A stretch of DNA of 63,175 nt, filler included, from Folioceros fuciformis (lineage: Eukaryota), in assembly GCA_049999805.1 (NCBI GenBank). It is 15 parts of 15 records of this genome, joined end to end, with 100 filler letters (N's around TTAATTAATTAA, not from the genome) between each part and the next. Parts side by side here need not be neighbours in the genome. Positions count along the whole stretch, not along the records: positions 23,222 to 28,487 come from JBNGIO010000589.1; 14 more parts are not named here. One strand, 5' to 3'. The notes under the pieces are model-generated. The model was not told the DNA's origin and did not search any database. It saw only the letters and a program-made list of their open reading frames with translations. This document shows, in pieces, positions 4,630-48,717 of this stretch. Numbering within the stretch: position 1 is the first letter of the stretch; each line of letters opens with the position of its first letter. The translations under genes were made by a program, and so were the position numbers.

Positions 4630-5420
4630 CTAGTTAAGTTGCAATCTAATGTCTCCTGTTCCATGGATAGCCAGTCCACTATCATCCCCTAGGAGGATGA
4701 ATTGATTGGTTGTTGTTGTGATATAAGTGATAAACATGTCACGGGACTGACAAATGTGATTAGTCGCCCCAGAATCCAGAAACCACATACGTTTATCCGC
4801 CCTGCTTAGTGAGAGGCAAACAGCTAATATGGCAAGTGCTTTGGAGTTGGTGTTATTTTGTCTAATAGCCACATTCGTGTATGCAGGGCGTCTTGGTTCC
4901 CTTGCCTGTTTCTTCCGGCACTCATTCTCAAAATGACCTGGAATTCGACACCAATTACAAGGGCCTTTCACCCTGCGTGGTGCTGCTGAGATATGGCCTG
5001 GCCCTGAATATGGACGTCGTAAATTAAAAAAAGGTTTGTATCCCCCACGGCCTCTGCCTCTACCTCTAGGGGTATATAACACTTGTTGTTGTGGGTGATT
5101 GGAGGACCGTCCCATATTCACCATGCTGGATTCTTCTTCAAGTAGAGCCTTAATAAGCTCAGATAAGGTATAATTTGGTAATTTCCTCATCAATGAAGCT
5201 TGTGTGCTTACAAAGCTCCGGTAGCTACCCGGTATAGAAGTCAACAGTATTGTTGCAACTGTTGATTGTAATGTCATGTCTTGCAGAGGATTTAGCACAG
5301 AGGGTGCGGAACTTGTTCACATAGTGTTCCACAATATCAGACTCCTTTATACGTAGGGTATAAAAGAGGCGTGTAGAGTTAACCAAGGACATCGGGTCCT
5401 TGGCGGCAAACATGTCAAGG
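4630..5420 (-). mobile_element. Ty1/Copia gag-protease fragment
   Basis: UBN2-type gag (LLTSIPGSYRSFV), zinc knuckle CNWCRIPGHFENEC, protease WFLDSGATNHIC. Confidence 0.9.
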
Positions 5421-5739: not shown

Positions 5740-6799
5740 ATGCTGGAGTGGAAATGGGTGGTTCGTACTCTAGTCATGCCTGCCTTCAGAGCACCCTGTC
5801 CTACAAAACCAATCCCGCTGCTCCCACTAAGTACATTGGACATTTTACCCCGGGTTCTGGTCAAGCAGAAGGAGATCTCCTCAATCGCCGTCATGGGGAA
5901 AGTGGCGGGGACAAACCCCGTCAAGTCGGACATCAACGACTATGTGAAGCGGGTAACTGGACAATCACCGGTTTACATCCACATCAAGACATATGGTAGT
6001 TTTCAAGTCAAGATGGCCTCACACAAGCTAGCAAAGGTCCTTGTTAGCAGTGGCACTCATTTCGATGACAAATCTCCAGTCACACTAGAGCCGTGGACCA
6101 CAGGTACTCCACAGGAAAAAACAGACTTCAAACGCAGATTTTGTGGGTTGAGCTCCTAGGCCTTACCCCAGACCTTTTTGAGTTTGCGGAGAAGATGGTG
6201 GCGACGGTCTTCTCTCGGAGTGCATGGCTGCAAGATTTGTGGGAAGGAGCCACTGTTAGATTCGGTGTAAAAGTGAACATCGTAACTGAGGTCCCCGCTG
6301 GTGTCACCATTGAATCACCTGAGTTCCCTGACAGAACCATTGTGCAGTATTTCAACTATCTGGACTTACCTACATGCTGCAGAAAGTGTGGCCGCGCTGA
6401 CCATTTGCAAAGTGCTTGCCCTTTCATCTTGTGGCAATGTACTGGCCTTCCGCCATCAACCAATGTGACCACCATGCCAGGATATTCACTGCCACGCCAG
6501 CACAGGGTAGTTAACAACACAGATATCAATCAGACATGCCGCAGATGGGGTGCTCTGCTGTTTGACCAGCCGGTGGCGGACTTGACCACCATCAGAGTAT
6601 GTATGTTCCTCAAGAAAACTCAGAAGACCAGTGCATTTACTGGATACTGGACAGAGAGCGGTTCATAGCTATCCCATGTGCAATCTTCAAACCCGAAAAA
6701 AACATTGAGGTTGAAACGCAGAAGATGTGGGAAGCAGTGGAGAGCAAGCTTCAGTCTATCATTCAAAAGGAATGCCCTAACTTGGCCCTTGCGCAATAG
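5740..6799 (+). mobile_element. Degenerate L1-type LINE ORF1-like fragment
   Basis: RRM/DUF4283-like segment followed by YLDLPTCCRKCGRADHLQSAC (CX2CX4HX4C knuckle); frameshift near 6100. Confidence 0.65.
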
Positions 6800-7070
6800 G
6801 TTGACAAGGTGATCTCTCATCCAGCTTTTGTTTGAAAATGCCCCCTGGACACTTGGACTTCCCCTTAGGGTTTTATAGACGAAAAAATGTTTAGAAATCC
6901 CCTCGCCAAGTGCGAGACTTGGTGCTTTTTTGTTTTTTTGATAAGATGGATGCGAAAGCGGCTTAAGTTGGGAATGGGCCGGAGTATTTTTGCACAAGAC
7001 CTCCTTGGGTCTTGAAGTTTTAAGGTAGACCAATAACTAGTCTATGGATCAGGTAGGGGAGGGTGCTACT

Positions 7071-7170
7071 NNNNNNNNNNNNNNNNNNNNNNNNNNNNNN
7101 NNNNNNNNNNNNNNTTAATTAATTAANNNNNNNNNNNNNNNNNNNNNNNNNNNNNNNNNNNNNNNNNNNN
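7071..7170. other. Artificial gap linker, 44 N + TTAATTAATTAA + 44 N. Identical linkers start at 13312, 17310, 23122, 28488, 31986, 36067, 40616, 43985, 51051, 52440, 56694, 57898 and 60484.
   Basis: Same 100-nt structure 14 times; the 12-mer puts stop codons in all six frames. Confidence 0.99.
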
Positions 7171-8431
7171 GACTAAACACATTAGTCTAAGCACATTGGG
7201 CTTTAATAACCCTACAACCTCCCACTTAAAGGCCAATTTACCTTCATAGGAGAGTGGTCTACCTCATGCCCATGAGTGTCCGAGCTTGTGCGAATTGCTC
7301 CATAGAGAGCCCCTTGGTAAAAATATCTGTCGGGTTTTGCCTGGTGTGAACTTTGACAAGCTATACCCTCTTGTCTTCCAACACCTCTTGAATGAAGTGA
7401 TACTTCACTTCCACATGTTTGGTCTTCGTATGAAACACTGGATTCTTCGTAAAATGGATAGCACTTTAACTATCAGAATGCAACACTGGCAACTCAACCT
7501 TGATCCCCAAATCTCCCACTAAACGAGCAAGCCACATGGCTTCCTGGCAAGTCTCAGTCGCTGCAACATACTCGGCCTTTGTGGTAGATGGCATTATGCA
7601 AGATTGCAAATGAGACAACCATGAGAGTGCCCCTCCAATGCACATGAAGACATAACCTGATATGGACCTCCTTTTGTCCATATCCCCTGCATAATCAGCA
7701 TCCGTATATCCCATGATAGATGCATCTTCACTACCAAAACATATGCACAAAGCTTTTGTACCATGTAAGTACCTCATAACTCTTTTCACTGCCTCCCAAT
7801 GCTTCTTGCCAAGGTTTGGCATAAACCTGCTAACCACTCCCACTGGGCCCTGGCGCCTGCGCCCACCCGCGGTCCTGGTGCCCCCACGGGGCCTGTCGCC
7901 CTGGCGCCTCCTGCGCCCCCGGTGCCCCGCTTCTGGGGCAGGCACCCCGGGCGGCGCGGTGGCACCCTCCCGAGTGCATCGCGCTGCCGCTGCCCGAGCC
8001 TGAGCACGGCGGGGTTGGAGACCCTTGCACCCTGAAATGCCACACACGGGCTCCCGGATGTTGTCCTCACTTCCAAGCCTTCCTCACAACCTTGCAAACC
8101 TTGTCTACAGCACCCATAGACATGACCATCTTACTCCACAACTTGAGCTCTGATACCAATTGAAGGATTGCTAGAGGAGCCACATGGTGAAGGAGGAAAG
8201 GAGAGGAGAAAGAGGTCTCACTCTCTGTGTCTCAATTGCAAGGGAGCTCAAGGGGGTATTTATACCCTCTAGAAGAGCTCCCAAGGAAGCTTCACAAGAA
8301 GCGCACAGAAAGCTGTGCAAGAAGCTTCCTACAGAATAGCTTAAGCTAATCTAAACAAATGGTACTTAACTAGACACTAATCTTAGACTAAACACATTAG
8401 TCTAAGCACATTGGGCTTTAATAACCCTACA
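7171..8431 (-). mobile_element. Non-autonomous Copia family A element: 5' LTR 8431-8161, PBS, GC-rich leader joined directly to RT end/RNase H, PPT, 3' LTR cut by the gap
   Basis: LTR TGTAGGG...CCTTCA (271 bp); PBS TGGTATCAGAGC immediately downstream; GYTDADYAGDMDKRRS..STTKAEYVA; PPT AAGTGGGAGGT before the second LTR start at 7215. Confidence 0.92.
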
Positions 8432-8499
8432 ATCTCCCCCACTCCCCACCTGTTGCTGATCTCACCGTTCCTTGTGCACTTGTATTGTCATGCTAATAG

Positions 8500-10174
8500 T
8501 TTATCAGAGATAAAAGTTATTGCCTCTTTGCACATGTGGAAGCCGGTTAGAGAAGTCAAGTGGAAGCCGGAGGAGCTAAGGGAAGAAGTCGAATCGAGCA
8601 CCTAGGAATCAGGGGCCACGGGGAGTCAGAGGAGGAAGCAACGGCTAGCAGGAAGTGGAAGGTAGGAGCGGGGCGGAAGACCCCTGCGAAGAAGAGGAAG
8701 ATGGGTGGCCGTGCAGCCAAAATTACGGGAGAGTTGGCGCTGCAGGAGGTCGTTCAGAAGGTGGGCGACAGGCCACTGAATGCACCTCAAGAAACGGTGC
8801 CAGGAGAGGGAGCGGGCCTGGCTGAGGTGGTAGCAAGTTAGGGCAACCGTAGGAGGAAGAACCCTTCCCAGGATGAGAGGGGATTTTCAAGAACGTTCCT
8901 GTGGTGACCAAGCTACAGGAGGCGGATTTGGCCAGAGTGCGCACGCTGCTAGGAAGGCAGATTTTGGACAAAAGGATGGCTACCAAAGGTGCACCATAGC
9001 AGGTGGATTTACCAGGCTTGACTGTGGCCATGGTGCGGGCACAGGCAGATATGCTGGACCAAGTTGCAAGGGCGCTGACTTGGTTGAGCATGTAGGGGCA
9101 GAAGGAGGAAGAGACACAGGCCAAGCTGATTGAGGCCGAAGTGAGTCGACAGCAACTGGAGGAGATTTGACAGACCCTTAGTGCAACCAAGGAACAAGCG
9201 GAGGAAGAAGCACACCGAGCCCGAGAGGAGATGCGGATGTTGAATGAACAGCAGGAGCTGCTCCTGACTCAAGCTAGGGAGGCCCATGGAGCCAATCAGG
9301 AAATGCAACACGAATTGTTGAGGGCCCTGGAGCAGGAAGCGGCTGCAGTGGAAAAAGTGCAGAAATTGGCGGACAGGTATAAGCGGGAGCGGAACGAAGC
9401 TTGAAGTCGGGTGAAGGGAAAAGGAAAGGCTAGGCGAAGTAGCAGAACTGCGACGGAGGTAGCCGAAGAGGCTACTGATCAGAGAGAGACCACGCCGGTA
9501 GAGGATAGCCCAACCAAGGTGGAGGAGGCAGCAACCATCGAGGAGCCCGCAACTGGTAGAGCTGGAATGGCAACCTGCACTAGGAGGATGGGGCAGGGCG
9601 GAGCGGCAGCAAGGGGGATGGAAGATCTTCTAGTGCCATTAGAGAGCAGAAGACAGGCAGTTTGGGATAGCCACGGGAGGAGGGGGTAAGCACCTCATCC
9701 GTAGCAAAAGGCCAGATTGTATTGCAGCATCCGGATGAGGCCACTTATGTTCCTGGCCTCTATGTGGATGGAGACCGTGTGCTAAACTTAACTGTCCATG
9801 TGCGTGTGGAACTAGGAGGGACAAGGGCCTACTGCCTGCAACTGAAGACTTGCAGGGGATCCTTCTTCCACTGTTGTCGAGTGTGGGGATTGCCCCCTTA
9901 CTATTCGGAGGCAGTCCTAGAGGAGTTAACGGAGGAGGAAGCAAGAGCATGGGTGGAGCAAGAGCCTGTGATGGTCCTCAGCAACAGGCGACTAGAGGGA
10001 GGAAGGAGCACCCCTCGACGGGGCCCATCCACACCGCCGCTGGAAGGGTCAAGCAGTAGTGGTGAGGTAGAAATCTTGTGGGAGGATTTGTCTAACCAAA
10101 GGCGAGGGAGGAGGGCTCGAGGTTGGCGGGTAAGAGGAGCGCGACGACCGGACAGGAAGCGAGCGTGGCGATAA
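8500..10174 (+). mobile_element. Degenerate accessory ORF of a probable LTR retrotransposon (basic N-terminal region, coiled-coil, C-terminal 150-aa segment)
   Basis: Successive E/K/Q-rich reading segments broken by stops; runs into a repeat (10050-10400) that is duplicated at 11825-12300. Confidence 0.4.
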
Positions 10175-11788
10175 GATAGGCCATAGTTATTGCATCTTAG
10201 AATAGTAGACTGTAGGATCTGGAGAAGAGGCTTTCTTGGACCTAATGCCACTTATAATTAAGAGGTCCTGCCTGTCCGCAAACTAGAATTAATGGCGGTT
10301 GCGGACCCGCCATCATGTACAAGAGGCCTGTTGGTGCCTCACCGAAGTAGTGAGAAATTGGCATTCCAACCTGTGGAAGCTTGGCAACGGCCGCTGCCGG
10401 ATAGGGAGATCCGGGCAGGCGAGTGCGTGCGGCGTTTCTGGGAGAAGGCGTGGGTGATTTCTCTGCTCCATGACAGGTGGTATCGGGGACGAATCGGCGG
10501 AACTTCCCACCGAGTGGAAGGAAAACTTCCCTTATTCCCGGTAACCCACGTTGTGTGTCGCAGTGGAAGTGAAGGGGGACAAATCCGCCGACCCGCAGAG
10601 TGGAGGGAGAACGATCCTTCCCTTATCCCTGGATCGACTGAGCTATGGCTTGCGGTTGAGGTGAGGGGGACGAATCCGCCCATGAGCGGAGTGGAAGAAG
10701 GGGTGCTCGCTTCCCTTATTCCCTGACTCTTCAACTGCCCCTCAAATACAGTGTTGAGAAGTGAGTGGATGTGAAGACTGACTGTGAGCTATGGTTAAGG
10801 GAGGGCAACGAATCCGTCCACTATGCAAAGTGGACGGAGATTACCTCCTTCCCTTATTTCCCGACTGCCGATTGCAACACGATCTTAGTATTGGTGTGTG
10901 TGCGTGTCTCAAAAGTGAGCGTGGAAGAAGGCGAAGAGAGAAGTGAGCGAGATGAGAAGGAGTGGGTAAAGTTGTGCTGAGGTGAGGGGGACGAATCCGC
11001 CGACCCGCGGAGTGGAGGGGAAGTTTTCCTTCCCTTATTTCCTGAACTGTTGGTTGCAGACGAGTATGCTATGAGACTGAGTGTTTGAGAAGAGTGCTAA
11101 GGTTGAGATTGCTGGAGAATTCCTAGAGAGACCTCGGGCGCTGTGTAACGCTGTTAAACGGATGTGGTGTGAAGGATCACTAAGAAACCACTGGAGAATG
11201 GTGGACGTTGCTGAGGGTCGGAGACCTTCGGGCGCAAGGTTGTGAGGAGTAACTGTACGTTAAAGATTTGGCGTGTGCTGGAAACGCTGTGTGAGTGTGA
11301 GGTATGGCCGCTCCGCAGAACCAGTTTGTCTAAGTGTGTATCTGTGGGTGTGAGGAGTGTTCAATAAACCCCGACCCGCAACTCTGGGGGTTCTTGGCAG
11401 AAACCCGCGATGGTACCTGCGCCGACATATGTTAGTTAGGACTTTGGGTGGAACCCACCATGGTAGTGGAACCCGCTATCAGTTGTGGAAACCCCAACTG
11501 GTTGTGGAGGTGCTAGTGGTCGTGGAGACCACGACCATGGTCGTTGAGTAGGGACCAAAGTCGTAGAGTTGGGACCATGGTAGCTAGACTAACTGCGGGT
11601 TGTGGTAGTTGAACTGGTAGGTAGTAGGGCAGTAGTAGACAAGGCTTGTCCTAGACAAGAGTCAGTATTAGAAGAAACCTGTGTTACTTAGCACAAATCA
11701 TTCCCTTGGGACCGAATCCCATGGCTACAATGACATAGAGGGTTTGTGTGGGCCTCGTGGTGTCCTCGGACACAATATTTTCCTCCAC
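10050..11788 (+). repeat. Long LTR-like repeat, family C, ending ...CCTCCACA; contains the five-module array
   Basis: Terminal ~100 bp matches 57418-57520 and 4512-4580 in reverse orientation; 10050-10400 is repeated at 11825-12300; TATA-like CTTATAATTAAG near 10251. Confidence 0.55.
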
Positions 11789-13110: not shown

Positions 13111-13411
13111 GTAACGTGTTACATATAGACTTGAATCAATTTAGTTTTGAGACATGAAATGCTATCACGATAGTGATGATGAGCAACAGCAAGACAACCA
13201 AGCAACATGTGAAGATTTGTTCACTAAAGATTACGCAGAAATAGAAATGCTTCTTTGTCAACTAAGCGATTTGAGACTTGAAACAACAGATTGACCCTAT
13301 TATGTGTTACGNNNNNNNNNNNNNNNNNNNNNNNNNNNNNNNNNNNNNNNNNNNNTTAATTAATTAANNNNNNNNNNNNNNNNNNNNNNNNNNNNNNNNN
13401 NNNNNNNNNNN

Positions 13412-17166: not shown

Positions 17167-17409
17167 AGCATCACGGCAAGGATATGTGCCAAGCCCAGAT
17201 CGACTTCCAGGGCAGAGGCTTCTTATCGTGAGATGAGCCTTCAGCAATTGGCTGCGTTTTTCTTAGAGTTCATGGTATAAGAAGGGCTGGCCTGTGTCTT
17301 GCCAAGAAGNNNNNNNNNNNNNNNNNNNNNNNNNNNNNNNNNNNNNNNNNNNNTTAATTAATTAANNNNNNNNNNNNNNNNNNNNNNNNNNNNNNNNNNN
17401 NNNNNNNNN

Positions 17410-21568: not shown

Positions 21569-22802
21569 GGTCCTGGTCCTCTGCCCACTAAGGCCTCCGT
21601 GTTTTTCTGCCTAGGTGGTATTCAACCAGGCATTGGCTCCGTTATCTCAGTTGGGGAAGCTAGAACCGATCTCACAACCGGATCCAAATCTCCAGCGGAG
21701 CTAGGGCCTGACCGTTGTTCCAGTGATTAGGAGGCCAGCGCCAACTCGCTGACTAGTGTTGAGTCCAACACCGAAGAGTCAAGACGCCTTTGCCCATGGA
21801 AATTCGAGGCAGAAACCTTCCCCACACCCTCACCCACTACCTCTACAAGAATCCCTGGCCCTTGCCCCTGGCTCAAGCCCGACGGTGACAACCACTCCGA
21901 GCCGTGCACCCATACTCCTTAAGAGGGCACAGCCATTGTTGCACCAATCTCGGTGTCGGAAAATGCGAATTTCCTAGTGGACTCCCTTTCTTCCTCCACA
22001 CTCCTGGAGATAAGGGACCCTTTTAACCCACTCCTGTAAGCAACCCCAAGGCTAGCCTGAATCTCCCAGCCCCTAAGGATTTGCTGGCGTCCAACCTCTG
22101 AAGGTTTTTCAGTTGTTTCACCCACCACCCTTACCAGCTTTCCAGGCCCTAGCTCCATGCTGGAGACTGAAGGAAGCTGCGTCTCCCAGCCTTTGAGGCC
22201 TAGGCTCTTGGGCAGAAGAACCCGACGGTGTTCCTGTACCGGTGACCACCTCTATCACAACACCTTTGTAGGTCCAATTCCCCACTTCATTCCTGGTGCC
22301 TGGGGGACGTTTTGCCTCTCCAATCTCCCGTCCACCTATGCATAGCTCGTCCTGCACTTCAGATGTTGATCCCTGTCCACAAATTTCTTCCTCCACTTGG
22401 TCTCCCACCTTGGCAGCTCCGAGAATTGTCCCAGAAGCCACCCTAGACAGGAAGGAAGCGCCATGCATGTTCACCCTTAGGGGTGCTCCGGTGATGGTGC
22501 CAGCGACCGAGGCACCGCCAAAGAGCGCACCATTCTCCTCCTCAAACCTGGATGCAAGATTTTTCAGCATCCCGTCCGCTTCGTGCCCACCTGTGGCTAG
22601 CACTTCCGTCGCATCAGCTTCCATCTCCTCATTTGCCAAGTGTGTGCTGGTGGAGCTTCCTGTCGAGGCCGTCACATCACCTTGAAAAGCCCCGACTTGG
22701 ACCCCGTTGGCACTGGGGACTAGCTACTCATCCTGGAGCCCCCGTTCAAATCGATGATTCCCTACACCAGGCTCTATAGGCGAGTTCTCTTCTCCCTCAG
22801 CT

Positions 22803-23121
22803 AGTAGCAAGATGTGTGTCGAAAGGGCCTTTGAAATGTTAAAGTGCAGGTTCCGGATTCTACTGAAAAGGTGTGACATGGCTTTGAAGAACATCCCTTC
22901 CGTGGTGTCTACTTGTCTTGTGCTACATAACATATGTTTGGTACATAAGCTCAAGTTTTGAGAAGAGTGGGTCTTGCAAGCCGAAGAGGCTTTGAATGAT
23001 GATGTTGGCATGGAGGACCTTGGGCAAAGTCTTTCCGAACAAAATGTAACACGAGAGGCAAGCAGAGATGTTCATCAAGCTTTACTTGAAGTTGGCCTAG
23101 CAAGTTCAAGTAAGAGTGGAC
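22803..23121 (+). mobile_element. PIF/Harbinger DDE transposase C-terminal fragment (HARBI1/ALP1-like); not in the supplied ORF track
   Basis: Manual translation SSKMCVERAFEMLKCRFRILLKRCDMALKNIPSVVSTCLVLHNICL matches the VERAFG.LK.RF...C..LHN signature. Confidence 0.85.
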
Positions 23122-24142
23122 NNNNNNNNNNNNNNNNNNNNNNNNNNNNNNNNNNNNNNNNNNNNTTAATTAATTAANNNNNNNNNNNNNNNNNNNNNNN
23201 NNNNNNNNNNNNNNNNNNNNNCGTATGTACAATGCATGAGCACCATGAGAGAGGGGAAGGCCGACCTCGTGTCCAAAAACTCAAGATATGACACTCAGAT
23301 TGCGCACCCCTACGCTATGGTAGCAGTAGGCTGCTAAGACCACTTAGACTTAAACCTCAAATTCGACCAAAGACCATAAGGGCTCACCTTCCCTAGGGAC
23401 ACGTGTGATTCCACTGCTCATCATTCCCAGGATCGAGAAAGCCCGCCTTCTTCCATTCTTTCCGCTTGAATTGTTTCTGATGGGACTGCCTCAAAGCTTT
23501 TGCTACAATCAGTACGTGTTCCCATATGCGCCATAATAAAGCCTTAGTTTTTATTATGGCACATATGGGAACAACAATTTGTTTTGACTCCCCATGATGG
23601 GAGACCAATCCCTATAGTCCACATGTGTGAATGCACTACAAGACGTTTACATACCCATACTAGCCATGCCTCCACAGTTCTACGGTACAGTTAGCCACGG
23701 CTACAAAAACTGCCTACTATTCAAAAATGCATGTTTTGCATGAACCCGCCGTACACACACCACTCGAGAAATCATCCAGACATAATCTTTATCATACAAC
23801 CGAGTGAAAGGCTCTACCGTGTGATGCGGGTCCGAACTTGCCACTCATTCATTGAGCCCCTTCCCGGTTTCTGAAAAGGCGTCATGCTAGTGGAATCGAT
23901 GAACAATACATGCCTTTAAAAGTTGGGCCCACAAGCGTAGGTCCACCTTTAGGACTAGGATTGAACTCTAGCACCAGGCCTACGCCCAAGGCAAAAAGTT
24001 AAGTATGAGGTCATTCTAACATTTTGTTTGTCAAACTTTTGCTCGGTTTGGGTGCTGAAGCAGTAGCGTAACAAACAGCCAGAGAATGTTACAAAATGGT
24101 GGAAGAATGTAACAAGAAAGCGTGACATAGGCCACATGTTTC

Positions 24143-24960
24143 TTGCTGTGCGATTTTCAAGCATTTCTATTAAAAGTGCACATTTGGAAAGGCCTGGAGG
24201 AGGAGCAACGTGCACTAGCAGATCTAGACATCAAAGAAGATTTGCAAAGCTTTACTGTGCCACAAACTGAAGAGGTTGTCCACTTCCAAGTTTTTGTAAG
24301 AGATGTTGCAGATATGCGGGGGTTCTTAAGAGTGCGGAACTACACAACTTTGGTTATGGACCTGCCACGAGTTTTCAAGAAGAGCACATATGACATTAAG
24401 ATGGAGTAAGCATAGCTGGCAACTATCTTTCAAGCTTTCAACGATATGACAACTTGCGAGGAGCCCCACATGATTGTCATGCGTGGAGTGGAGGAGATGT
24501 AGATTGTTCGAGAAACAATGTGAAAGTAGTGCACTTGTGGGGGAATGGTGTCATTCATATGGCACAAGACAAACATGCACAATGATCTTGGAGGGTTTGA
24601 CATTGTGTAGTACATCACTATTGGATGGGGTGCATCCACAGAAAGTAAGAAGACAAGATTCCCATGGTACGACACAATGTGCAGGGGCCCTTCAACAATG
24701 GGCGGGCTGTCATTTCACATGATACTGTTGTGAAGAAGCTGTTGTACATGTCCTTGGACAAACTTGTGGTTTACGCCTACCAACGTCCTCTGGGGCTTAT
24801 GATGAAGCTGATCAAGACCTTTTCCATGGAGGGTGATTGGATCCTTGATGCTTGCTTTGGAAGTGGGACAACTACCTTGGCAGCTTTGCTAAGTGGGCAG
24901 AATTGCACGCGATTGACATGGACAAGAGATGCACATAATTCATTCTGCAACAAATTCATG
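24143..24960 (+). pseudogene. Beta-class amino (N6-adenine/N4-cytosine) DNA methyltransferase, decayed
   Basis: Motifs in beta order: LVMDLP (motif IV-like), FIWHKTN, then YQRPLGLMMKLIKTFSMEGDWILDACFGSGTTTLAALLSG (motifs X-I, SAM binding); several stops and a frameshift. Confidence 0.75.
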
Positions 24961-25135
24961 GATATGAGGTCCTCCCAGATGCCATTGAGGAGCTTAATCA
25001 TGAGCCTCACCAGAGAGGCCCATTTCAATTTTGAGCTAAGGAGCTGAGCCTTTTAGGAAAGGACATTAGCCAGGCACAAACTGTGCCATTAGGAATGGCT
25101 AAATTGAAAGAGCAAAGGGGTGCCCTCGTTGAATA

Positions 25136-28100
25136 TGTTGAAATAGCACCACTAGCTTAGATGGACTCCACAGTACATTCCTTATGGTGCACAGGATGCT
25201 ACATATATAGCCTTTAGGCAGGGCAACCCTCGATAAGGTAAGCCTTAGTCTCGAGGGTGCAATATCCTGGTATATCCTAATATATCCTGATAACACTTAG
25301 GTGGTAGATAACTATGAGTTCAATATGGGATAATCTACACTATCCTAAGTGTTGTATGCTCTTAATAACAATTCAGTTAGAGCTTGATTTCTAACATTCC
25401 CCCTCAAGCTCAGACTATTTGTAACACTCCAAGTAGTTCATGAAAGTGTAAGAACTTATCTCTACCTAGCGACTTAGTACAGATATCTGCTATCTAGTCT
25501 TCGGTCTTTACGTGCCGAAGATCTATCTTCTCAGATAATACCACTTCCCTGATGAAATGATAATGTACTTCTATGTGCTTCAAACAAGCATGAAACACAA
25601 GATTAGTAGCTAGCCTCATGCTACTCATTTTGTCACAGTAGATTGTGACCTTGCTGTTCACTATATTTCCAAGATCATGTAGAAACTTCTGCAACCAAGC
25701 TGCTTCACAGGCTACCATTGCAGCTCCCCGATACTCTGCTTCTGTGCTTGACAAAGCAACTGTCGGTTGTTTCTTGCTTTGCCAGCCGATCATACTACTT
25801 CCCAGACTGAATGCACATCCATTGGTTGATCTTCTGTCACACGCACAACCAGCCTAATCAGCATTTGTATATCCTGTCAATTCAAGATGCTTTCTATGCT
25901 CATAGAGCAATCCAAACTCAGTAGTTCCTTTCACATATCTCATGATTCTTCTAGCTGCATCCAAGTGCGGTTTCCTTGGGTTTTACATGAATTGACTAAT
26001 CAGTCCTACTGCATGACTTAAGTCAGGACGTGTGATAGTCAAGTAGATCAAACTTCCGACCATCTATCGATACATGGTCACATTTTCCAGCTCAGTTCCT
26101 ACATCCATTTGCAGCTTGACGTTCTGCTCCAATGGTGTATCCATCGCTTTGCAATATGCGATGCCATACTTCTGCAGCATATCCTTAGCATATTGTTTTT
26201 GCATTAGCCAGATTCCTTGAGGTGTAGACACAACCTCAATTCCTAAGAAGTATCTGAGTTCACCAAGATCCTTCACCTTGAACTCTTTTTGCATATTTGC
26301 CTTGACATCTACAATACCATCCGCATCATCTCCTGTGATGATCAAGTCGTCAACATAAACAACAAGACATACTTGTCCTACCTTGGTCTGTTTTACAAAC
26401 AGACTGTGATCTGCGTCTCCAATCACAAACCCTCGTTCCTTCAAATAGCTTGTGATACGAGCATTCCATGCTCTAGGTGCCTGTTTGAGTCCATACAATG
26501 CCTTCTTCAGTTTGCATACGTACGTTGGAAACTTAGGATGAACATAGCCTTCAGGCTGTTCCACATACACTTCCTCCTTCAACTCACCATTCAAGAAAGC
26601 ATTCTTGACATCCATTTGCCATAAATTTCATCGTTTAGCTGCTGCTAATGCTATGACTGTTCTTACAGTTGTCATCTTGGCTACTGGACTAAAGGTTTCC
26701 TCATAATCAAGACCATACTGTTGTGCATATCCCTTTGCAGCCAACCTAGCCTTGTTACGCTCCAGCGTTCCATCTGACTTGAACTTCAGCTTGTACACCC
26801 ACTTAGAACGAATAGGAACCTTGTCATCAAGCAATTGAACCAAATCCCACGTTTCGTTCTCAACTAATGTTGAGTATTCTTCATCCATGGCTTGACACCA
26901 CTTATCATCTATCACTGCCTCAGCAAACTTGAATGGCTCCTTACAAGCTGTGACCCTTTTCATATATGCATAATGTTGCGCATTGTAGCTTGTATAGGTG
27001 TACCTGTCAATGGGTTTCCTAACCCTCTCAGATCTCCTTGGTCTTGGTTCAGTTTGAACCCGCCTTGCATATCGTTGTTCCTTAGCACCTGGCGTTTCCA
27101 CAGACGAAATGCCAAACTCATTGTCAATGCTCTTACTACTTGAGGATTCATATCCCTCATTTCCAGTTTTGCTGCTTTCTACTCTCCCCCTCACTGACAT
27201 GTCCAGGTCAGTGGTCTTGGGTTTACAATTCTGCAGTCTTTCAGACCATGGATTCACCGTTGGTGATCCACCATTGGTCACATCCTCACTCTTTACTAGA
27301 ATACTCTTGACAGTGCTCTCCCCGATGGGTGCATCATAGGGTAGTGCAAGTGAGTTGCTATACCAGGAGGCTAACTCATCAAATACGACATCCCTGCTTA
27401 TTAGGATCTTATGTGTGGATGACACATAGCACTTATATGCCTTCCTATTTCGTGCATACCCCAGAAAAACACTCTTTACTGCTTTAGGATCCAGCATCCT
27501 ACACCTCTCATGAGGTACATGCACATATGCAATGCACCCAAACACTTTCAAGTGCCTAATATTCGGCTTATAGCCATACAGTCTCTCAATTGGTGTAGCA
27601 TCATGAATTCTCGTCGTAGGAGTTCGATTTAGTACATACACTGCTATCATCATTGCTTCTGCCCAATAATCATTAGGTAAGCACTTCTCATTCAGCATTG
27701 CCCTTGCGGTTTCCATGACTACCCTAATCTTCCTCTTTGCAACACCATTCTGCTGTGGTGTGTATGTGCAAGTCAACTATCTTTGTTTACCATGATCTGC
27801 AAAATACCTGTCAAACTCATTTGAGACATATTCTCCCCCTCCATGTGATCTTAGACAAGAGATGGAGCAACTGAATTCATTTTCAGCATGCTCTTTGAAG
27901 TCCTTGAAAGACTCGAACACTTCATCCTTATGCTTCAATATGTACAACCACGTGTACCTGCTGAAATCATCATTGAAGGAGACATAGTAGTGGGCTCCTC
28001 CAAACGATGCATTCTGTGAAGGACCCTATACATCAGAGTGTATCAATTGCAAAGGTCTCGAGCTGTTCTGCACGTGTCGCACAAATGGAAACCATGATTG

Positions 28101-28359
28101 TTTTCCAAATTGACATGCATAACACACATGACCAAGATCAGCATACTTGAACTTGGGCAATCCTTCCACCACGCTTTTCTGTTGCATAGATTTTAGCTCC
28201 TCTATGTTCACATGCCCAATCCTCTTATGCCATATTTCAACATCACGTATGGCACCTGCATCATTTGTAAACATTGCTACATTTAGCTCTAGAATGGATG
28301 CATCCAGAGTGAACATTCGTCCATTCCTACTACCTTTAGCAATTAGTTTGCGCCCTCTG
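25136..28359 (-). mobile_element. Ty1/Copia element 3' two-thirds: GAG-pre-integrase, rve, RT, RNase H, PPT, 3' LTR ~25396-25136
   Basis: [72 protein letters not shown]...AACA. Confidence 0.95.
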
Positions 28360-28487
28360 TGTGGAGGCAAAACCCCGGGCACTGATTGCCGACGGGTCCC
28401 ACCTTTAGTGGCCACACTTATCCCACTGTCGTTGAGACATTGGGTTTCGTTCCCACGAAGGAGCGATGGGGTTCCTTGCTGCTGTGG
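28360..28487. repeat. Terminus of LTR-like repeat family B (TGTGGAGGCAAAACCCCGGG...) interrupting a Copia element
   Basis: Near-identical to 31083-31210 and to the reverse copies 28588-28735 and 52540-52661. Confidence 0.85.
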
Positions 28488-28587
28488 NNNNNNNNNNNNN
28501 NNNNNNNNNNNNNNNNNNNNNNNNNNNNNNNTTAATTAATTAANNNNNNNNNNNNNNNNNNNNNNNNNNNNNNNNNNNNNNNNNNNN

Positions 28588-28735
28588 GATCAAGTCCGAC
28601 CCTCCATCCACAGCAGCAAGGAACCCCATCGCTCCTTCGTGGGAACGAAACCCAATGTCTCAACGACAGTGGGATAAGTGTGGCCACTAAAGGTGGAACC
28701 CGTCGGCAATCAGTGCCCGGGGTTTTGCCTCCACA
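28588..28735. repeat. Terminus of LTR-like repeat family B, opposite orientation
   Basis: Reverse complement of 31083-31230; ends ...GCCTCCACA. Confidence 0.85.
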
Positions 28736-28803
28736 CACAGCTAGCCCAGGCATATGCTGTTGCACAAGCAGGAGCAGCACTCGCACACCAAGCTATAGGA
28801 AAC

Positions 28804-46257: not shown

Positions 46258-48717
46258 ATGGATTGTAGGTCGATCGGCCTCTTACGAGGCCTGCTTGTGT
46301 TGTTTTTGGCTTTAGTGGTTGCAGATTTAGGCCCACTCGTGGAGGGGAAAGGTGTCGGTGGGTGTGAGCGTCTGTCCTTGTGTGAAGTATCTGAGGGAAA
46401 TGTGGGAGGCATAGTAAAGGAGTGCTGTCGTGTGTTGGTGGCTGCGAATGACAGAGGCTGCTTTTGTGCTGCTCCTCCTCAACACTGGCTTCTGTCAGCA
46501 CTGGAAGTTTGCAATGTGACACTTAGCACCTTCGGCAGCCTGGAGTGTGCATCTATCGAGGGTACGACTTCTGGTGCAATGGTATTATTTACAAGCTTTG
46601 TCTGGACAATGTGTGATTCCGATGGGTGTTGTGTCTTGAAGTCTTTCTTCCTCTGGCCCCACGTGCAGCTTCCAGTCGATCAGCAATGCGGAAGCTCGGC
46701 CGGCATTATGCCAGGAGTGCAATTCATCCGGAATCTGAATTTTCAGGGCTGCCAGACCATGTAACAGAGCATGAAGTTGGAAAAGAGCATGTTGAGGGAT
46801 CAGGACTTGAAGATGGTGAACTATCTGATGGTTCAGGGGAGATTATGTTCGGAATTGGCGGTTGCGTTATGTTCTCATGTGCACTTGTATGCCCATGTTT
46901 TTTTAAGAAGCGCAATGAAAGCATCAAGGATAGTGATTCTGTGAATATACTGTCCTCAAAGGGTAAGGACCAGGCGACGTCAGGCCAAAGGAACAATTTC
47001 TTTCCTGTGGTTTATGTTCCCGAGCCATGTGCCGGCAATGGAGTTTTTGTCTTGTTTGGCTTCCCCGTAAATCACCTGACGGATGCTGCTTCATGGTTTG
47101 CACCAGGTGGCTCAAATCCCCCGAGTACGAACTTTACCATGTCTCCTGCCCGTTTTGTCACCTCTCCAACTCAACCGGATGTTGTTGCGGGAAGACCCTT
47201 CACAATGGCCGACATTATGAAAGCCACTGACAATTTCTCTCCATCTCGGAAGATAGGACAAGGTGGATTTGGACTGGTCTACCAAGGAAGGCTGCCTGAT
47301 GATCAGATAGTGGCAATCAAGCGGGCCAAAAGAGTATGATAGTTGCATTTGTGTGACATCTACATCAAGACTGTCTTTTGCTGGGCATAACGTTACCGGG
47401 TGTTGTCCAAGCAGGATGCATTTGAACCACGGTTATCGGTGGAGTTCCAGACGGAGGTTGATGCCCTTTCGCATGTCGAGCATTTAAATCTTGTGAAGTT
47501 GATCGGATATCTTGAGGAAAATCAGGAGCGTATTCTTGTTGTGGAATATGTTAGTAATGGCAATCTGCGGGAGCATCTTGACGGTGAGCACGATTGCAAC
47601 CTGCCTCGTGTTTTAGTTCCAAGTTTCTTGCGCTCTTGTCCGGCTTGGTGCATTCCATTCACTGCTCGGGGAAGGGGGAGGGAGGAGGGAGTCACTGCTT
47701 TCTTCGTCTGTTCCTGTTGGTACGTTCCATCTTCTTACTTGCTACCTGTTTCTGTAGCAAGTGCTGGAGGAATATTGGACATTGGCAAGCGGCTGGACAT
47801 CGCTATTGATGTGGCACATGCTTTAACTTATCTTCACACCTACTCTGGTACGACTAGGTTGTCAACAAACAATCTATTTCTATTCACTTCCGACTACATT
47901 TGTCAAAGTCATCTTACGTGACAGCATTTCCTGTGCAGACCGACCCATTATTCACCGAGATGTGAAGGCTTCAAATATTCTTCTTACAGACACATACAGG
48001 GCTAAAGTAGCAGATTTTGGGTTTTCGAGGGCTGGGCCTGAGGATGGTGGGGCAACTCATGTTTCCACGCAGGTTAAGGGCACAGCTGGTTACTTGGACC
48101 CTGAGTACTTGAACTCGTACCAGCTTACTCAAAAGAGTGATGTATACTCGTATGGAATCTTGCTTATTGAGATCTTTACCGGGAGGCGACCTATCGAGCT
48201 AAAGAGACCTAGTGATGAGCGAGTGACCGTGAGATGGGTGAGTAAGCGTCGCATGCTTGGAAATATTTTCCATGTTCAGATTGATCCTGCCTGTTTTAGT
48301 CAGTCTGAACGACTTGAGGGGAGCGCTGTTTGCTTGGTGACTTGGAGGTTGGAAACAGTCCTGAGTGCTTGCGTTGATATTCAGGCATGGAAGAAAGTGA
48401 GCGATGGAATGGTGGCGGACATTCTTGACCCGAAGCTTGAGCGAACCCAACCAGCAATCATGATGGTCGAGAAGGTTGCGGAGCTTGCATTTGCATGCTC
48501 AGCTCCATCAAGGAACGATAGGCCCTTGATGGGTGACGCCGTAAAAGAGTTGTGGACTATACGATCTCAGTATCAGGCTGCGATGAAGGAAATGGGGTTT
48601 GCCAAAAGTGCATCGAACGTCTCCACAGCCTCCACCCTCTCATTGAGCAGTAAGAAGGCAGGTTCGGATTATCAGTATGACCTCCCTAGACGAGGGAGCT
48701 GGCAAGCCGGAAGATAG
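46258..48717 (+). CDS. Receptor-like kinase of CRCK/RLCK-IV type with signal peptide, 8-Cys domain and TM helix. Exons 46258-46561, 46669-46962, 47107-47333, 47415-47583, 47758-47847, 47939-48237, 48385-48717.
   Basis: GT-AG introns with consistent phases; GQGGFG, VAIKRAK, HRDVKASN, DFGFSR, THVSTQVKGTAGYLDPEY, KSDVYSYG; CALVCPCF juxtamembrane motif. Confidence 0.92.

Follow-up and report, generated by a model that had tools for sequence, protein, structure and literature searches.

A decayed PF01555 methyltransferase gene in Folioceros fuciformis, probably a pseudogene of a eukaryote-type family

A methyltransferase relic cut off by a Copia element

The window analyzed here, meaning the whole 63,175-nt stretch of the Folioceros fuciformis assembly GCA_049999805.1, contains at 24155-25031 on the + strand a decayed gene for a beta-class amino-methyltransferase of the PF01555 (N6_N4_Mtase) family, hereafter the relic. 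Counting across the window gave 14 identical 100-nt linkers, N44-TTAATTAATTAA-N44, which are six-frame-stop linkers, and we infer that the window comprises 15 separate contigs of 1.1-7.1 kb each, strung together. Because unrelated contigs are chained in this way, arguments from neighborhood across linkers are void in this assembly, and real contiguity around the relic is restricted to the 5.3-kb contig at 23222-28487. The features of the relic, with S-adenosylmethionine abbreviated to SAM, are as follows.

24155-24658, + strand: N-terminal half, frame 2, with the lead-in, the motif IV strand, FIWHKTN and YITIGWG; six in-frame stops
24353-24376, + strand: VMDLPRVF, frame 2, the motif IV region, with Arg in place of the aromatic residue
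24554-24574, + strand: FIWHKTN, frame 2
24611-24631, + strand: YITIGWG, frame 2, immediately 3' of a stop
24653-24663, + strand: frame break, from frame 2 (ending ...ESKK, 24652) to frame 1 (MVRHN from 24664)
24664-24906, + strand: C-terminal half, frame 1, with the YQRP block and motif I; stop-free
24664-24687, + strand: MVRHNVQG, frame 1
24778-24798, + strand: YQRPLGL, frame 1
24832-24873, + strand: GDWILDACFGSGTT, frame 1, SAM-binding motif I
24907-24908, + strand: frameshift, a one-base deletion, from frame 1 to frame 0
24909-25031, + strand: tail, frame 0, with AIDMDKRC... and LPDAIEEL, interrupted by a stop at 24936 and closed at 25032

A previous reading made from the DNA alone (the sequence-only reading) had placed a methyltransferase feature at 24143-24960; the feature is real and every peptide string quoted for it was located on the + strand, while its extent is revised to 24155-~25031. 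The 132-residue open reading frame (ORF) at 24649-25047, counted stop-to-stop, matches PF01555 with E 9.2e-9 and 36 bits against a Pfam cut-off of 26.7, and the match remains significant in the 2100-residue stop-masked frame (E 3.1e-7), the search by which that reading had proposed to check its assignment. Pfam's own match covers profile positions 161-206 of 221 only. The N-terminal half goes unseen by Pfam but is matched in tblastn by full-length relatives, with residues 70-164 of protein P0004 aligning to 24302-24577 (E 1e-6), residues 47-156 of P0017 aligning to 24272-24595 (E 2e-7), and P0018 and P0151 likewise matching within 24272-24595. The BLASTP alignment of P0013 with the frame-2 ORF begins at window position 24155 (E 4e-8), and the C-terminal half matches P0003 with E 4e-18 (tblastn). 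The tail is supported by residues 297-318 of P0004 (tblastn) and, by eye, resembles the ...LP.E.EEIG tail of P0013 and P0011. The motif order is permuted: DLPRV (24359-24373) lies upstream of FGSGTT (24856-24873), and both halves align to full-length family proteins, so that the proposed beta-class order, motif IV before motif I, is borne out by coordinates and tblastn alike. The SAM loop FxGxG(T/S) of motif I is present as DACFGSGTT (24847-24873), and VMDLPRVF aligns with the family's D-[LI]-P-[YHR]-G. Family proteins found no further methyltransferase copy elsewhere in the window by tblastn. A search of the read index with 24131-25047 listed no RNA run, and run X4, guessed to be RNA, matches the relic's contig in the LTR (long terminal repeat) and the contig-end repeat only; neither result bears on expression.

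The description of the gene as decayed was accurate. The relic carries seven internal stops and at least two frameshifts; the in-frame stops of the N-terminal half lie at 24407, 24413, 24500, 24521, 24527 and 24608, and the C-terminal half runs for 73 codons (24688-24906) free of stops. Logan contigs from two runs (X1 and X2) of the probable source sample were built independently of the assembly, although they are not an independent sample, and show 0 differences from the window over 24310-24607 and 24711-25164 at a word depth of 9-12. Since they are identical across the broken stretches, the lesions are not artefacts of this assembly. The runs are small, with 290 and 323 million letters of contigs, which would leave some room for an intact gene whose stops are sequencing errors; seven stops and two frame breaks, the exact agreement of the Logan contigs, and clean Copia ORFs of 382 and 187 residues on the same contig make this the least credible explanation that we considered.

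The same runs contain at least one further, diverged copy, whose pieces are ~88-92% identical to the relic and occur as contigs in both. One contig shows 49 differences and one gap in 424 positions over 24711-25133, and another shows 21 differences in 256 over 24338-24593. The former runs ~150 nt beyond 25133 in sequence unlike the window; since the second copy differs from the window at this point, it lacks the Copia insertion described below. One diverged contig has an additional T after 24907, which would give the family reading ...GQNCIAIDMDKRC, and one lacks 7 nt, 24656-24662, at the first frame break. From 24102 onward the relic has a summed word depth of 13-41 in X1 and X2, compared with 9-12 for 23574-24101 (one X1 bin being 0), 484-2626 in the Copia body and 6700-10900 in its LTR; summed word depth is no copy number, and we use it solely to state that the relic is not highly repeated.

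Downstream, the contig is occupied by a Copia retrotransposon, and two linkers bound the whole.

23122-23221, no strand: linker N44-TTAATTAATTAA-N44, left end of the relic's contig
25136-25397, - strand: Copia 3' LTR, TGTTGAAAT...ATTTCTAACA, followed by the polypurine tract complement
25398-25412: polypurine tract complement, within the Copia internal region
25398-28487 (contig end), - strand: Copia internal region, with RVT_2, an integrase SH3-like domain and gag-pre-integrase
28488-28587: linker, right end of the relic's contig

Pfam matches to RVT_2 (8e-49 and 9e-17), SH3_retrovirus (2e-29) and gag_pre-integrs (5e-12) identify the element. Its LTR ends are confirmed by the reads: foreign sequence takes over in read contigs at 25135/25136 and at 25397, and a read-contig piece of 262 nt, itself flanked by foreign sequence, spans exactly 25136-25397. 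Independent contigs extend from the methyltransferase tail 29 nt into the LTR, slightly short of the 31 nt that the bridging rule asks for. The LTR insertion truncates the downstream region of the relic ~100 nt past the last recognizable homology, and the statement that the relic is contiguous with a Copia element in plant DNA holds, as both lie on the contig at 23222-28487.

The relatives form a eukaryote-type clade

Word-index protein searches with the 132-residue ORF returned nothing in the "longer" or "near" length ranges; an exhaustive HMMER search succeeded, with 282 matches at E<=1e-3. Among the 150 of these that were listed, 19 share the pattern YQKP..L......FS..GDW[VI]LD, which is absent from the bacterial matches, and these 19 proteins look eukaryotic from their sequences. 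The relic carries the corresponding YQ(K/R)P...GDW[VI]LD block as YQRPLGLMMKLIKTFSMEGDWILD. The best single match to the ORF is P0001, a prokaryote-type protein of 1598 residues with three tandem PF01555-like domains after a long N-terminal region.

To place the relic, we built a tree of 71 rows comprising the window (with X at breaks), the joined exons of metagenome locus L004, 18 signature proteins, and 51 of 134 other proteins (200-480 residues); P0001, P0002, P0029, P0031 and all shorter or longer matches were left out. The tree is a quick search with Shimodaira-Hasegawa-like approximate likelihood ratio (SH-aLRT) support, without bootstrap, and two of its long branches were flagged as meeting. 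One clade of 28 rows (SH-aLRT 99) unites all 20 rows labeled beforehand as eukaryote-type with eight that the pattern had missed, which read as eukaryotic on inspection; the remaining 43 rows form the opposite side of the tree (SH-aLRT 99). Within the clade the window groups with P0004, P0013, P0003 and P0011 in a five-row subgroup at SH-aLRT 94. In the phylogeny that the sequence-only reading had proposed, the relic thus falls within the eukaryote-type clade, apart from the bacterial and phage rows; the Marchantia enzymes named alongside these stand outside the tree. The label "prokaryote-style" is misleading, as the closest relatives belong to the eukaryote-type clade and some have GT-AG introns.

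Of 30 proteins looked up, names are available for five: Ginkgo biloba Gb_37443 (P0006), two Riccia sorocarpa proteins (KAL3685543 and KAL3699649, on contigs of 47 and 52 Mb), Adiantum nelumboides MCO5579754, and one protein of Apostichopus japonicus. UniRef labels the Riccia pair "DNA methylase N-4/N-6 domain-containing protein", a description that automatic annotation also gives to the sea cucumber sequence. The tree places Ginkgo P0006 with L004, P0007 and P0014, and leaves the Riccia and Adiantum proteins unresolved. Intact relatives, as the sequence-only reading supposed, do exist, in other genomes. The A. japonicus protein PIK34159 (P0052), together with P0104, is an echinoderm entry in a clade otherwise named from plants, has a long branch and reads DKPQ at motif IV, and hints that the clade either arose earlier in eukaryotes or passed from one eukaryote to another.

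Motif IV and predicted chemistry

The sequence-only reading had called motif IV "DPPY-like". Its position and its Asp hold; the motif reads DLPR, and the aromatic residue that ends the (D/N/S)-P-P-(Y/F/W) form is missing. The window has DLPRV, and the two nearest relatives that cover the region, P0004 and P0013, have DLPRG. Asp is found at this site in the window and in all 14 clade members covering it, in which the last residue is Y in eight, R in three, H in one (Ginkgo), S in one and Q in one. The aromatic residue of motif IV stacks on the flipped base. The DLPR subgroup may perhaps comprise no active enzyme at all, and METTL14 is described in passages of PMC4738411 as having likewise lost or changed catalysis.

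An AlphaFold2 model of P0004 (alignment A1) has a mean predicted local distance difference test (pLDDT) score of 71.9, with a core at ~90 or more. Foldseek places CcrM (6pbd) as its best match (E 7e-12), followed by rotifer N4CMT, M.MboIIA, M1.HpyAVI, M.BceJIV, M.RsrI and M.PvuII, and a sequence profile search of the PDB is likewise topped by CcrM (1.5e-13) and the DpnA-type M1.HpyAVI (1.3e-12). Ser at motif IV is given as a sign of N4-cytosine enzymes in a passage of PMC4738411, and the Marchantia polymorpha sperm N4-methylcytosine (4mC) writers MpDN4MT1a/b carry TSPPY according to the text available of bioRxiv 10.1101/2021.02.12.428880. The Ser of this SPPY/TSPPY type is absent from the window and from all 14 members. 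Because Asp occupies the site in every member and Ser/TSPPY is the N4-cytosine sign, we infer that the target of intact members would be N6-adenine. Target specificity has switched repeatedly within the domain, as passages of PMC8885841 state.

Prokaryotic and viral counterparts

A search across 185,579 prokaryotic species, each represented by a single genome, gave 80 listed matches, all confined to the motif I stretch (~229-323 of P0004), with one spanning 158-312 at 26% identity; none of the 80 covers the N-terminal half of the relic. Among IMG/VR viral contigs there were just two weak C-terminal matches. Fold matches in BFVD, which include phage, Pandoravirus and Megaviridae methyltransferases, are 6-20% identical in 29 full-length matches and no closer than the bacterial structures. 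In the Atlas, P0013 lies nearest phage PF01555 clusters, and in a word-index search with the family profile the best named matches from outside the family were phage-type ParB-methyltransferase fusions, with a coverage of 18-23%. These data point to a bacterial or phage ancestry for the family, long separated from any sampled donor.

The same results bear on whether the relic was recently acquired by horizontal transfer, with a bacterium or phage as donor, or is contaminating bacterial sequence in the assembly. PF01555 is overwhelmingly prokaryotic and phage-borne and the assembly is a chain of short contigs, both of which such an origin would lead one to expect. However, the relic shares a contig with a plant Copia LTR whose border is crossed by independent contigs, its clade is eukaryotic, and its N-terminal half is matched by no listed prokaryotic genome. 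The proposal is very improbable, and we conclude that the relic is neither a recent bacterial transfer nor contamination.

Gene structure and selection in intact relatives

Scanning metagenome contigs identified 198 relatives among 253 pattern matches, of which 80 were kept and 25 inspected. In 19 of these 25 loci the exon with the motif IV strand is a separate ORF; two others contain the last exon only, two have no ORF of 130 residues, and two are bacterial ParB-type genes. The G+C content is 35-43% in ten measured eukaryote-type loci, against 50% and 57% in the two bacterial ones, and a plant-like short-chain dehydrogenase gene adjoins the relative at L010. The ORF breaks of L004 coincide with canonical GT...AG introns, the splicing of which, as predicted from DNA, gives ...NLAW-IKTNV... 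and ...SGTG-TTSAC.... The relic is intronless at both sites (after ...W and after ...SGTG); FIWHKTN and FGSGTTT run uninterrupted where relatives carry introns, in agreement with the earlier statement that introns are absent.

Genes of the L004 type open with a ~555-residue exon, the last 290 residues of which are highly conserved and form an N-terminal module also present in the Ginkgo, Adiantum and Riccia proteins. This module, as seen in Ginkgo and L004-type genes, went undetected upstream of the relic: a hidden Markov model (HMM) of eight N-terminal sequences found nothing better than E 0.8 in the six-frame translation of the window, and that match lies elsewhere; ~930 nt of contig are available upstream. 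ParB_N (PF02195) is absent from the window by both Pfam and the module HMM. At its cut-offs Pfam finds nothing in the module, and a ParB domain in none of nine sequences; one of the nine, from Ginkgo, has a weak match to DUF6551 (E 0.019), which we take to be ParB-like. A PDB profile search with the long-form relatives found the methyltransferase part alone, and hhalign of the module-bearing relatives against ParB-methyltransferase fusions aligned motif I alone. AlphaFold2 modeled the module poorly, at a mean pLDDT of 53 and below 50 for residues 1-138. A feature search of the Atlas placed the module nearest DUF3723 (0.95) and ParB_N (0.91), which serve as leads only; in the same capacity, DUF3723 is reportedly mentioned in papers on the giant Starship transposons of fungi.

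Family proteins are under strong purifying selection. The median ratio of nonsynonymous to synonymous substitution rates (dN/dS) was 0.04 (3 of 21 pairs computable), 0.031 (9 of 55, with 45 saturated) and 0.018 (33 of 45, with 11 saturated). The copies compared were drawn from several samples and could be either paralogues or orthologues belonging to different species. Median differences were 0.105 and 0.041 at codon positions 1+2, vs 0.549 and 0.454, respectively, at position 3. One pair of loci, L010 (4739-7895) and L011 (1743-4900), shares 3.16 kb at 99% identity. In L010 the long exon is missing its first 1.2 kb, and the locus lies instead 2.7 kb from the short-chain dehydrogenase gene; the pair represents either a recent 5'-truncated duplicate or a haplotype.

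Origin of the relic copy

The missing introns could be explained if the relic were a processed pseudogene, retrotransposed from an intron-bearing family gene of the host. Both L004-type intron positions are uninterrupted in the window, and the part common to the second copy seems to start near the coding homology, where depth rises from 9-12 to 13-41 at 24102. This depth argument is weak, as summed depth is no copy number; the 3' end, at which poly(A) would be expected, has been removed by the Copia LTR; and P0004 and P0013, its nearest relatives, each consist of one ORF, of DNA or RNA source, so that the subgroup may simply be intronless. A retrocopy is in our judgment unlikely, if worth keeping in view.

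Absent introns would also suit a gene that is cargo or accessory of a DNA transposon or other mobile element, of which the relic would be a dead copy. At least two copies occur in the sample, several distinct copies occur per metagenome sample, and DNA homology in more distant pairs is limited to ~3.1-3.4 kb around the gene. The taxa are patchy and include one animal, and the N-terminal module lies nearest DUF3723 in the language-model feature search, a lead only. Carrier signs were nevertheless lacking: there is no transposase or recombinase, terminal inverted repeat or LTR of its own on 23222-28487 besides the separate Copia, in a test limited by short contigs, and no terminal inverted repeats or LTRs flank the gene in L004, L010 or L011, which have solely local tandem and palindromic repeats. 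The relic is far from the repetition seen for Copia and its LTR. Closer pairs share longer flanks, so the ends of any unit are unsharp, and the mostly saturated synonymous sites and very low dN/dS are compatible with old conserved genes. We consider a mobile carrier doubtful.

One candidate for such a carrier was rejected. The C-terminal 45 residues of a PIF/Harbinger DDE_Tnp_4 domain occur at 22797-22931 (+), 1.3 kb before the relic, with E 1.1e-5, the remaining domain being undetected, and we considered whether this fragment and the methyltransferase formed one element; the linker at 23122-23221 puts them on different contigs. Around the intact relative at L004 we observed ~ten 41-nt palindromic tandem units upstream (599-1032) and three 41-nt units downstream (4814-4958), the latter unlike the upstream units in sequence.

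Old resident genes are a third possible source, with which the low dN/dS, the saturated synonymous sites and the lengthening of shared flanks with relatedness are consistent. Retrocopy, mobile carrier and old resident genes thus each fit some of the evidence on how the relic arose.

Other content of the window

Beyond the two linkers listed above, the artificial linkers include 7071-7170, 13312-13411 and 17310-17409, plus nine others. Few non-transposon coding pieces occur in the window, among them a fragment of a receptor-like Pkinase domain at 47827-48714 (+, 7e-22); this fragment and the Copia and Harbinger content are compatible with plant DNA. At the end of the relic's contig, 28326-28487 has a summed word depth of 115,000-182,000 in X1 and X2, and the arms 28355-28487 and 28608-28740, the latter at the start of the next contig, are 98% reverse-complementary; this very abundant repeat is the place where the assembly broke. 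Upstream of the relic, 23222-23573 has a raised depth (71-139 in X1 and X2) and contains a 57-nt palindrome (23517-23573, 88%), and may be a small repeat or miniature inverted-repeat transposable element. Differences between run X3 and 23222-28487 are nearly all C>T (136) and G>A (120), such that X3 resembles a library made from this sample after bisulfite or enzymatic conversion, and could yield the 5-methylcytosine state of the relic and Copia.

Interpretation

We favor the reading, to which we assign a probability of roughly 0.8, that the relic is a defunct pseudogene from a beta-class amino-methyltransferase family of PF01555 that resides in eukaryotes. Its position inside the clade at SH-aLRT 94, together with the YQ(K/R)P...GDW[VI]LD block, argues for membership. 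The distant ancestors of this family would be bacterial or phage enzymes similar to CcrM, DpnA and M.MboIIA. Intact D-x-P-Y-G members would methylate N6 of adenine in DNA, with the base flipped into the motif IV pocket and the methyl group supplied by SAM at motif I. The DLPR subgroup probably lost or changed this methyl-transfer chemistry before the relic copy died, and the copy itself is now functionless, given its internal stops, its frameshifts and a downstream part severed by the Copia LTR.

Several points weigh against this reading. The closest relatives are just 41-48% identical to the relic, so that its clade placement depends on a long branch (1.04) and the SH-aLRT value of 94, with no bootstrap. 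The family is scattered across a liverwort, a fern, ginkgo and a sea cucumber and has multiple copies in metagenome samples, a pattern that a mobile carrier would explain as well as vertical descent with losses. Target and substrate, whether N6-methyladenine (6mA) or 4mC and DNA or RNA, are inferred from the motif IV Asp and the best structural matches; in fold, the A. vaga and PvuII N4-cytosine enzymes come almost as near. No intact copy was found in the window by tblastn, and the second copy in the sample may be an allele or homeologue instead of a paralogue.

The relic itself is an ordinary dead gene with no effect on its host, and its value is as a pointer to the family. In the literature searched, to which subscription journals and supplements did not belong, we found no description of a land-plant PF01555 family besides Marchantia DN4MT1. 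Passages of PMC4738411 report few N6-adenine methyltransferases in land plants, and its clade list, Fig. 3 and supplements aside, holds no such family; rotifer N4CMT is stated in part of PMC8885841 to have no eukaryotic homologues, and in passages of PMC8885841 and PMC12344493 the enzymes of rotifers and Marchantia figure as isolated cases of acquisition. The clade thus seems undescribed in the literature searched, apart from the automatic annotation of some members. What the relic points to is a whole PF01555 clade with introns and very low dN/dS, whose named members come from a liverwort, a fern, ginkgo and an echinoderm. If some members prove active, they would be candidate sources of the 6mA (or 4mC) signals whose presence in plant DNA is disputed.

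A bolder and tentative extension, which we hold to be improbable in its entirety, is that the relic marks a eukaryotic clade, so far undescribed, with a conserved, possibly ParB- or DUF3723-like N-terminal module, under strong purifying selection in non-flowering land plants, whose D-x-P-Y members might write 6mA or another amino mark on DNA in a setting such as the male germ line or a mobile-element cycle, with the DLPR branch serving as a dead partner or reader. Liverworts, ferns and ginkgo, the plant groups with named members, all have swimming sperm. If true, this would be a second such system alongside the Marchantia 4mC enzymes.

Comparison with known systems

The nearest named systems are the Ginkgo, Riccia and Adiantum proteins, which share the 28-row clade with the relic and the same signature around motif I. 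They fall outside its five-row subgroup and differ at motif IV, reading DIPHG (Ginkgo), DVPYG (Riccia) and DAPYG (Adiantum) against DLPR in the relic.

The bacterial beta-class enzymes CcrM, M1.HpyAVI, M.MboIIA and M.RsrI (6pbd, 5hek/5hfj, 1g60 and 1eg2) resemble the relic in their PF01555 domain, motif IV before motif I, and FxGxG SAM loop, at 14-19% identity to the family in fold alignments. Unlike them, the clade is eukaryotic, carries YQKP...GDW[VI]LD and long N- and C-terminal extensions, and has introns in some members; the relic further differs from CcrM-type enzymes in being broken and in its DLPR. ParB-methylase fusions (PF02195 + PF01555; P0152-P0156) are the best named prokaryote-type matches to the family profile, yet they lie far from the eukaryote clade in the tree, and their profile-profile alignment with the family is limited to motif I.

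Among eukaryotic enzymes, bdelloid N4CMT (8s9m/n/o) is similar to the family as a eukaryote-domesticated PF01555 protein with introns, as described in passages of PMC8885841, and matches it in fold with E 1e-10. Unlike the relic's family, it is described there with a C-terminal chromodomain fusion and assigned to N4-cytosine; it is not in the tree. MpDN4MT1a/b resemble the family as land-plant genes of prokaryotic amino-methyltransferase ancestry with the beta-class motif order, following the available text of bioRxiv 10.1101/2021.02.12.428880. The likeness to these Marchantia enzymes that the sequence-only reading had drawn does not extend to motif IV, where TSPPY contrasts with the D of the present clade; on this motif description, made outside the tree, they are enzymes of a different kind.

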